In this document: piece by piece, positions 12,201 through 14,841 of the stretch
How the letters are laid out: each line of letters opens with the position of its first letter
How positions within the stretch are numbered: the first letter of the stretch is position 1
NCBI GenBank assembly: GCA_977020255.1
Contig: CDROCS010001406.1
Span: 62,001-126,000 of the forward strand
Direction: 5' to 3'
Source of the DNA: Obrimoposthia wandeli
Lineage: Eukaryota
DNA length: 64,000 nt
Made by a program: the position numbers and the translations under genes
The notes under the pieces: model-generated
Databases searched by the model: none
What the model saw: only the letters and a program-made list of their open reading frames with translations
Told to the model about the DNA's origin: nothing

Positions 12201-12860
12201 AGATGAATTTCATTAATGTCTGCATTTAGGATTCTGATTGGTATTGTGTTGTTTTTTATTTTACAAATTATATTTGGCAAAACGTAGTTCAAGGTTTCTT
12301 GTTGATATTTATAAGGTTCAAATAATACATCTTTTTCTGTGATTATGTTAGTTTCTAGTTGTAACATTGTTTCTGTTCTTGGTTGGAGAATGATATCTCC
12401 TTTTATTTCTAACTCGTATTCATCTTTGGCGTTAGGTCTGTAATGTCTTTTATTTGATTTTTTTCAAAATCAAAGTGGAAATTATTTCCTAATCTTCTTA
12501 ATGTATCTATTCCTATGATCATTTGGCAAGGACAATTTTTCATTATTCTTGTAGGTATTTTTATGAATTTATTTCCTATTTTAAAAAAGACAGTCTAATT
12601 TTCCTATTATATCTACGGGTTGACCGTTTGCTGCTGTGACTTGACTATTTTCCTTAAGAAGAAGTAATTTTTGTTGTGTTTTTAAGAAAGATTCGTCTAA
12701 AACTGTTACGCTTGATCCTGTGTCAATTAAAGCTTTAAGTTTATATTCGTTAATTTCTACCTTTACATATGGTCGTTTATCGTTATCTTTTGATTTATTG
12801 TATATATTGTTGGTGCAGTTGATTTTTGTATAGTTGTTTTATCTATATATTTTTCTAAAT
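9015..12860 (-). pseudogene. pol: Gypsy pol (aspartic protease, RT, RNase H, integrase), frameshifted
   Basis: PR ALIDTGSS (DTG at 12716-12724); [39 protein letters not shown]; RNase [53 protein letters not shown]. Frameshifts near 12590 and 11830. Confidence 0.97.
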
Positions 12861-14841
12861 CAGGATATTGTGAAGATTCCGTTTTTTCTGTTTCTTTTGG
12901 TATTTGTAATTTTTTGTATATTTGTTTCTCGCATTTCATTTGATAATGTATTTACTATGTTTTGATGATGATTAAAAATAAGGAATTTTGCCAAAAATGG
13001 AAAACATCCTAAGATTAATTTCCATGTTAATCCTCCAACTTTATAAATATAATATGTTGATAAAATTTGACTTAGAAGAATCTTAAAGCAAATTAGTAGA
13101 GCATATATTCCAACTAATCCAGAAAATGCTTGTCCAAAAATTAAAATGTTACCCCATATTTTTGACATGGTGTTTTTAGTGGCTTTTATAAAATGATTTG
13201 GAGAAAGTAATAAGTCATAATCGGGACGGCTAATTCCGTCAGGTACTGATCTTTCTATGATTTGTGTTAAAATTCTGGATCTTATTTGTGGAAATAAAAT
13301 TTCTTTTCTTAACTTATCTATATCTTCCTGTATATAAATTCCTTTTGTGTTTAATTCGTTATCTGATTGTATATTGATGTCGTTGCTGAGAGTGGTTAAT
13401 TGTAATTTTTGTGGTTCTGCGACAATATCTCTTCTTGGAAGTGAAATCCAAATATCTTTTGAAATTTGATAATGAGGTGCCATTATGTTTGAGCAGTTTA
13501 TTTCTTTTATGCTAAAAGTGTTAAAAAGTATGATTCTAGTGATTGGTTTTACAAATAATGAATTATTTTTGTAAGAAATTGGTAATTCTTTTGTACATTT
13601 TTGATGATTTCTTATGTTAACTATTACTTTTTTACATTGATAAGTGTAAAACACTTCTCCCATTACTCTTCCAAAAGTACCGTCAGCTAATGGTAATAAT
13701 GGTGTTATTAATTCTGGGTTAGTAGCAATAATTGCCAATTTCGTTTTTAATATCTCCTGATTTAATTTACAATCATTCATTATGGTTTCTCTATATATTG
13801 CTTCTATTGTCATTAGTCCTTTGTGATAAAAATAATCTAATTTATTGTTAAAATAATCATATTTTTAATATCAAATTTAGTTGGTGTCGTTATGTATTTT
13901 TTCATTACTCAAATATATTCCTTTATAATTAGTTGTATAAACAGAGTGTCCACATCGGGATTCCTCTTTCTTTTTAATAAATCGCATTCCTGAACCTTGT
14001 TCAATAGACATTAATATAGTTGGAGTTGGTGTTTTACGTATTTTTCTAGTTCTATATATTTTATGTATGTCCTTTGGAACCTGTTGATCTAGTTCCGGAT
14101 CATCTCTAAATCTTTTTCCTTGAATTATTTGAAAAGTTTCTGATTTTAAATGTATTAATTTACATTGATCGATTTTTACTTTGTAGTAAAGTATTGAAGA
14201 ACCCGTGTTACAGTGACCCATGTTTGCTTCACAAAATGGCATTGTTACCATTGTGTTTGTAGAGGGGTCGAATGTTGCTTTGAAAGTTCTTAGTTCGACT
14301 TCAAAATTTTTAATAACTACCAAACCACTTTGCTTAACTCCCATTACTACATAAGTTCCTGTTGTACATTCTCCATCAGATTTAATCGTACCTACTACTG
14401 ATATCATTTGTTGAATTATTTTATTTTTCGCCGCTCGGACTTTAATTTCTCTATCTATTCTCAATTCTCCTGTTGCGAAAGCATCTTTACAATTTAAAGC
14501 GTCAACTATTATTGGTGTTTTTCCTAATGCTGGTTTTACTATTGAATTGTGACTATGTTGTCCACAATATGTTATAAATGTCTCTACATGTACTCTACAT
14601 TCAAAAACTTCTGCATATATGAAATCTGTTTCCTGATATACTTGATACAACTTAGTATTTTGGATTTTTACCTCATTTGGGTCAGGTCTGCACATTGCTG
14701 TAAATCCATTAAAGAATATTTATTTTGAATTTTATATTTTGAACAATCATATGCTTCTAAAGCATTAATTGGTTTTATCATGTTCATAATTAGACATATT
14801 ATTAATATTATCTGAATAATTTTCCATAATTTTTTCATCAT
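12860..14841 (-). pseudogene. Chuvirus-like (gB-related) envelope glycoprotein, ~660 codons, frameshifted
   Basis: Manual translation from ATG 14841: signal peptide MMKKLWKIIQIILIICLIMNMIKPINA then LEAYDC...SLMDLQQC. A frameshift leads into 13877-14695 (C.V.V...ITYCGQHSHNS, NCKDAFATG) and on into 12860-13813 (YFNNKLDY, C.LNQEILK, GEVFYTYQC, TM FSGLVGIYALL). These motifs match my recollection of Chuviridae glycoproteins. Confidence 0.85.

Follow-up and report, generated by a model that had tools for sequence, protein, structure and literature searches.

The BEL/Pao elements of mosquitoes that Dezordi reportedly described in 2020 carry a chuvirus glycoprotein, and in 2022 Sacco et al. are said to have reported a metavirus with flipped env and pol genes, in which an RNA-virus glycoprotein is encoded within one continuous gag-env-pro-pol frame. 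These nematode elements are reportedly low in copy number, restricted to nematodes and provided with other extra ORFs. An env gene in frame between gag and protease was described by Arkhipova and Yushenova in 2019 for the planarian element Burro (PMC6431247), and elements of GAG-ENV-POL order with a gB-type envelope protein are described from Nematoda, Bryozoa and Platyhelminthes by Chary and Hayashi (eLife 2026, PMC13524379), who credit those of nematodes to Sacco 2022. In the same account the entry mechanism and the partner glycoproteins of gB-type errantiviruses are called unknown, and herpesvirus gB is noted to need partners (PMC13524379). The rotifer elements Vesta and Juno carry a DEDDy exonuclease as ORF3, and TM-bearing ORF3s are found as well (Rodriguez et al. 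2017, PMC5408684).

An env gene between gag and pol, a gene order which the initial annotation of the present locus had called non-standard and for which it had named prior description as a point against novelty, is therefore already in print (PMC6431247; PMC13524379), and the novelty of the gene order fails. Here, we compare these systems with a Gypsy element in a 64,000-nucleotide stretch of DNA (the window) and with its copies and relatives.

The element, its family and its relatives

The window contains an LTR retrotransposon on the minus strand, running from 18933 to 4803. It belongs to a high-copy Ty3/Gypsy family, but this copy is broken, with 14 frame breaks; the domain order PR-RT-RH-INT and the Gypsy type of the domains assign it to the Metaviridae. 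All of its parts are accordingly on the minus strand. The 5' LTR (17777..18933; TGTTGG...TTAACA) is of the type of subfamily A, contains a 137-nt tandem repeat and, over its first 664 nt, shares 97.7% identity with the LTR pair of copy C151. It is followed by a 12-nt primer-binding site (17764..17775) and by the gag frame (14915..16666; likely start at ATG 16273), the stop of which is reached through a frame change found in the window copy alone. In an unbroken copy, gag encodes a capsid-like part and three CCHC-type knuckles; it has no Pfam match and weak similarity to the gag of relatives. The fusion glycoprotein gene G (12860..14841), a Pfam Monjiviricetes_fusion member, is split over three frames in the window copy, and pol (9400..12838), also broken by frame changes, encodes an aspartic protease (DTG), a spacer, RT (YIDD), RNase H and integrase.

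Behind integrase lies a broken coding region for an in-frame, predicted type I membrane protein of subfamily B type (7987..9240), hereafter the tail. Next come the remnant of a small ORF (7560..7900), judged by its position to be homologous to a 138-aa, coiled-coil-like ORF of a subfamily A copy, and an exonuclease ORF (5985..7111) of the DEDD family of 3'-5' exonucleases (Pfam RNase_T) with an in-frame stop near 6945. The exonuclease (391 aa) is separate from the polyprotein frame and lacks one catalytic acidic residue in the window copy; the A and B enzymes are 43% identical with catalytic motifs kept, and no homologue was found at E 0.001. Its third motif contains a His, which we take to make it a DEDDh enzyme. 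The 3' LTR (4803..5767) is of subfamily B type, being 96.6% identical to both LTRs of copy C350, and has no match to the 5' LTR of the window. The initial annotation had not remarked on the tail, on the exonuclease or on the difference between the LTRs.

The window copy is thus composite: it is of A type from the 5' LTR through gag and G into the greater part of pol, the tail, exonuclease and 3' LTR are of B type, and the switch occurs inside integrase at about 10000–9250. Subfamilies A and B share ~85% nucleotide identity. The 1.35-Gb genome contains at least 120 G matches at 95–100% identity and at least 150 gag matches at 97–100%, and the Ty3/Gypsy family is recently expanded. Copies are ~14 kb long with paired LTRs of 0.7–1.4 kb at 95–99.5% identity. 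A 4-nt target duplication was found in 6 of the 12 A/B copies listed, the LTR ends of the other 6 not being resolved; sister copies thus have the LTR pair, tRNA primer site and target duplication of an LTR retrotransposon, and the LTRs of the window copy itself are unpaired. The build is modular, with different types of gag-pol, tail, exonuclease and LTR combined from copy to copy, and some copies are without the exonuclease region.

The primer site pairs over its 12 nt with the 3' end of the genome's tRNA-Trp(CCA). A tRNA-Arg was set aside as primer in favor of tRNA-Trp; the matching tRNA-Arg sits in a tRNA cluster of bacterial appearance. Some LTR ends carry a longer stretch of the tRNA-Trp 3' half; at one locus ~40 nt of it, including CCA, adjoin an LTR-like end, and two more loci have this pattern, which is likely a product of primer over-copying during reverse transcription. 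The tRNA-Trp genes themselves form a tandem array of more than 35 units with a 207-nt period (contig C5734, 143000–151100).

Relatives were sought among long proteins with an RT-RNase H query. Among the best 120 of 3,578 matches, the highest identities (54–61%) belong to 17 mostly unnamed proteins, 11 of which contain, in one chain, a glycoprotein of the same family as G (PF24664) followed by the protease. In the RT tree, families A, B and C group with the 17 relatives in a single clade, apart from 10 chosen Gypsy outgroups (UFBoot 100). Seven relatives have extra protease-like repeats before the protease and again behind integrase. Family C is a Burro-like family of the same genome and RT clade, with a G 36% identical to that of the present family and at least 138 G matches (copies include C869, C2549, C6901 and C76). 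Its Gypsy elements, of 22–24 kb, have frames that reach 4,645 codons, or 5,301 if one stop is allowed, and encode gag, G, a duplicated protease, BIR, RING, pol, a dual-specificity phosphatase and several signal/TM segments behind integrase.

Elsewhere in the window, a decayed fragment of a family C G is found at 42391–43862 (plus strand; 72–75% identical to copy C869), and a fragment of the G TM region of an A/B-like element at 24240–24438 (minus strand; ~80% identity) adjoins a gag-like remnant at 23732–24172. The regions 19000–22100 and 1–2400 contain pieces common to other repeats, which look to us like Polinton/Maverick remnants; a weak adenoviral-protease-like match (E 0.04) lies at 20381–20653. 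Spliced exons of a host gene, presumably CCR4/CNOT6-like, extend over 28014–60318 on the minus strand with LRR and exo-endo-phosphatase matches; this gene and the Burro-like family C would point to a flatworm as the host. Several FN3-rich loci of the genome have long intronless FN3-repeat ORFs which, together with the bacterial-looking tRNA cluster, suggest that the assembly probably includes bacterial contigs.

Gag, G and Pol in a single reading frame

In a sister copy with unbroken G, the protein matches Pfam Monjiviricetes_fusion with an E-value of 1e-91 and lies in frame between gag and protease, as the initial annotation had proposed for the glycoprotein. Its description there as chuvirus-like holds at the level of the class only, the Pfam family being that of the Monjiviricetes, and a weak Borna G match (E 0.015) was obtained as well. 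G has a signal-like segment, a 543-aa ectodomain with 14 Cys and C-terminal hydrophobic segments; the signal-like segment precedes G in 12 of 12 sequences listed, and seven Cys are invariant across 16 aligned G sequences. Based on its family, we assign G as a putative class III fusion protein. A PDB sequence search with G gave no match, no named viral homologue was returned, and no occurrence of G in viral contigs was confirmed.

To follow G and its junctions through the family, we used a sample of 60 subfamily A copies, namely the first 60 of 149 gag matches after that of the window, picked regardless of G, and 20 subfamily B copies picked for long open frames. G is kept at 96% of its length or more in 56 of the 60 gag-picked copies; three others are truncated or at a contig end, one is deleted from mid-gag to late G, and a clean gag-protease joint without G occurs in none of the 60. 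Among variants present in two or more copies, pN/pS is 0.10 for the G ectodomain and 0.09 for RT, with 0.58 for singleton variants in G, and dN/dS between A and B is 0.04 for G, 0.02 for RT and 0.03 for integrase. G is under purifying selection and as constrained as RT, which argues that it is a working part of the element and not a passenger. The RT and G trees of 14 elements, a comparison that the initial annotation had advocated, have 7 of 11 splits in common and one well-supported conflict; the latter hints that G was exchanged long ago.

In one natural copy, a single frame of 2,889 codons begins ahead of gag, continues across G and pol and takes in the C-terminal extension. In the copies at large, the junctions are open in one frame in 36/59 (gag-G), 38/56 (G-protease) and 40/52 (integrase-tail) cases, which does not differ from control stretches in RT (36/54) and integrase (31/51). 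Of the 579 frame-breaking indels in the 60 copies, 395 fall in homopolymers at least four long; breaks this frequent are what assembly error or decay would be expected to leave. Since the junctions are as open as the controls and a natural unbroken copy exists, Gag, G and Pol are encoded in a single frame, and to this extent the polyprotein idea of the initial annotation is borne out. This does not hold for the offset frame that was thought to be open between the G end and the protease: the QIPKETEKTESSQYPDLEKY frame stops at 12763, the protease motif (12838–12581) is in another frame, and two frame changes separate G from the protease in the window copy.

The window copy by itself, with G in separate frames, would be compatible with G as a later nested insertion or passenger in an ordinary gag-pol element, a caveat that the initial annotation had attached to its own reading together with the possible absence of G from other copies. 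The presence of G in 56 of 60 copies, its dN/dS of 0.04, the openness of both junctions and the one-chain order in 11 distant relatives leave this idea with next to no probability, and we rejected it. Improbable, though less extremely so, is the synthesis of Gag, G and Pol by programmed frameshifting or read-through with the single-frame copy as an exception, also entertained earlier as frameshift variants. A 583-codon gag frame common to 13 among the 150 gag matches listed, and six sampled Burro-like copies that break at one site in G, are what such a mechanism could produce, but the net offset is zero in 39/59 (gag-G) and 40/56 (G-protease) copies, like the controls, the shared breaks are in homopolymer runs, and the one B copy inspected lacks the slippery heptamers that subfamily A has close to the end of gag, with no conserved shift signal seen at the junctions. 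Moreover, the family C sample had been ranked by a query ending at the break, and other copies of that family are open over 4,645 codons. For the A/B chimera in the window, the mismatched LTRs point to either ectopic recombination or an assembly join, since reverse transcription normally gives two identical LTRs. The mismatch itself, the flanks of the element (TATG and CATG, without a 4-nt duplication) and the homopolymer-rich errors throughout the assembly would fit a join; on the other hand, an A/B recombinant with paired LTRs (97%) exists as copy C6026, and a crossover in integrase, the region of greatest similarity between A and B, fits ectopic recombination. We give the join a chance appreciably short of even, a recombinant chromosome being the somewhat likelier reading.

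A predicted membrane protein behind integrase

Past integrase, the single frame encodes a signal-like hydrophobic segment ending in V-N-A, a 309-residue ectodomain with six N-glycosylation sequons and two to three possible FN3-like modules, a second hydrophobic (TM) segment, which in both A and B includes charged residues, and a predicted cytoplasmic part of 47 residues with a PPGP motif. A signal-plus-TM test of the region behind integrase, simple and with thresholds of our own setting, was passed by 13 of 17 relatives as well as families A and B, and by 0 of 101 other listed Gypsy integrase proteins (0 of 27 with at least 200 residues after integrase), most of these controls being gene models from one arachnid genome. 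The four relatives that fail the test end just after integrase, have no hydrophobic segment, have a signal and an Ig domain without TM, or have a signal below threshold. The ectodomains of the relatives differ. Beta modules bearing a C-x2-L-x-P-x-T-x-Y-like motif make up one connected family, three proteins have an ectodomain of Cys-rich type, and one protein has an Ig domain. No third tail type was found among 8 further G-bearing loci, all of family C.

For the tail ectodomain, dN/dS between A and B is 0.42 and the shared-variant pN/pS is 0.54 (13 synonymous and 29 non-synonymous variants; G versus tail, p 1e-4). As judged by these ratios, the tail ectodomain appears to be translated and constrained, yet much less than G.

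The fold of the tail ectodomain was evaluated against the FN3 hallmarks, namely a sandwich of seven strands, a Trp in strand B and the motif L-x-P-x-T-x-Y in strands E-F. Language-model features in the ESM Atlas gave FN3 at 0.91 with the entire tail and again with module 2 by itself, and an Atlas recognition score for the tail of 1918, below the 2300 mark. A tail profile had a short match to host FN3 (E 0.0076; exceeded by 0 of 60 shuffles), and HMM scores for FN3 were 10.4 and 8.0 bits, reached in neither case by any of 50 shuffles; the modules' own FN3 match is partly circular, as they were picked through an FN3-like motif. The hhalign probability for FN3 was 5%, and searches of Pfam, of PDB sequences and of 1.84 billion representatives gave no homologue of the tail. 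AlphaFold models of the tail had a pLDDT of 30 from the single sequence and 35 from a 31-row alignment, and a fold search with this low-confidence model returned mixed beta folds with a best Z of 5.0. Between the A/B ectodomain and those of the relatives, phmmer found no match and a profile-level comparison matched 62 columns with E 0.013. Multi-copy FN3 matches in the genome were rejected as relatives of the tail, since they look like host exons. We make a weak call of the tail ectodomain as FN3-like.

The proposed polyprotein and known systems

Based on these observations, we propose, with a probability of roughly 0.7, that gag, G, PR, RT, RH, INT and the second membrane protein are expressed from one frame as a chain that is threaded through the ER membrane and cleaved, and that particles bud with G and probably with the second protein. 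Gag would remain cytosolic, ahead of an internal signal made of a basic stretch, a hydrophobic core and small residues at -3/-1. The G ectodomain would then enter the lumen, and Pol would come to lie on the cytosolic side after the G anchor, tethered through G to the budding membrane; since G ends in two hydrophobic segments, a cytosolic Pol requires that one of them does not cross the membrane. A second internal signal after integrase would release a type I protein with a short cytosolic tail. Signal peptidase would free the N-termini of both ectodomains, the aspartic protease of the element would cut Gag and Pol, and the yield of every product would be the same. By analogy, a polyprotein with two internal signals resembles the membrane polyproteins of flaviviruses. 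Both the processing by signal peptidase and the infectivity suggested by the initial annotation remain putative. At the surface of the budded particle, the fast-evolving tail ectodomain would most likely bind a host surface molecule and thereby serve in attachment, and G would carry out fusion.

We infer that the tail protein may be such a second envelope (attachment) protein, and favor attachment over host modulation only slightly. As an accessory factor, the post-integrase protein could instead act on the host as a decoy receptor, as a signaling or ubiquitin-ligase adaptor, or in blocking superinfection, and this has a chance not far below even: the Atlas neighbors of the tail include cytokine-receptor FN3 proteins, 10 of the 14 relatives listed have a PP motif behind the TM segment, three of them in the form PPxY, and the Burro-like family of the same genome has BIR, RING and phosphatase cargo in frame, the cargo of Burro itself having been interpreted as host tinkering (PMC6431247). 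However, the signal-ectodomain-TM slot is kept while its ectodomains are swapped (FN3-like, Ig, Cys-rich), and the tail would be made one-to-one with G, both of which fit a structural partner. Taking attachment as the function, the complete proposal would be a two-glycoprotein envelope released from one polyprotein, in which a conserved class III fusogen is paired with an attachment protein that evolves fast and can be swapped among FN3-like, Ig-like and Cys-rich types; we advance it tentatively, as doubtful in this full form. If true, the tail protein would be the counterpart of the receptor-binding partners needed by herpesvirus gB, and it offers a concrete candidate partner for the entry of gB-type errantiviruses. 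Should it modulate the host instead, it would still represent a class of accessory gene not found in the literature searched: in the body of these texts, we found no such element described as having an FN3, an Ig or a second membrane protein behind integrase.

The closest described systems each share part of this organization. The mosquito BEL/Pao elements have a glycoprotein of the same broad family, but belong to another superfamily (here Gypsy) and carry it at another position. With the rotifer elements Vesta and Juno the family shares a 3'-5' exonuclease ORF downstream of pol (PMC5408684); here, in contrast to the description of those elements, the exonuclease is of the Pfam RNase_T type and adjoins a full fusion glycoprotein. 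Burro and GYPSM1 are alike in the in-frame env, matches to mononegavirus-type fusion proteins, CCHC knuckles and one long polyprotein (PMC6431247). Burro is distinguished by giant size (an ORF of about 5,000 aa) and cargo, features that family C has in part; the present family, at ~14 kb and 2,889 codons, has no BIR, Bcl-2, MATH or ankyrin Pfam matches, and adds the signal-ectodomain-TM end and a separate exonuclease ORF, neither of which is mentioned for Burro in the published text compared here (PMC6431247). The elements of Chary and Hayashi, compared by their description, agree in gene order, an ectodomain between signal and TM, multiple copies, LTRs and a tRNA primer site, and have a gB-type/chuvirus-like env, a type that is putative for the G of the present family; the words "fibronectin", "exonuclease" and "polyprotein" do not occur in the main text (PMC13524379). 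The gene order itself is thus already known. What the present family, whose young copies number at least in the hundreds, contributes is a demonstration at the population level that one frame encodes Gag, G, Pol and an additional membrane protein and that G is constrained to the same degree as RT, and what is added to the known systems is a second predicted membrane protein that extends across the clade.
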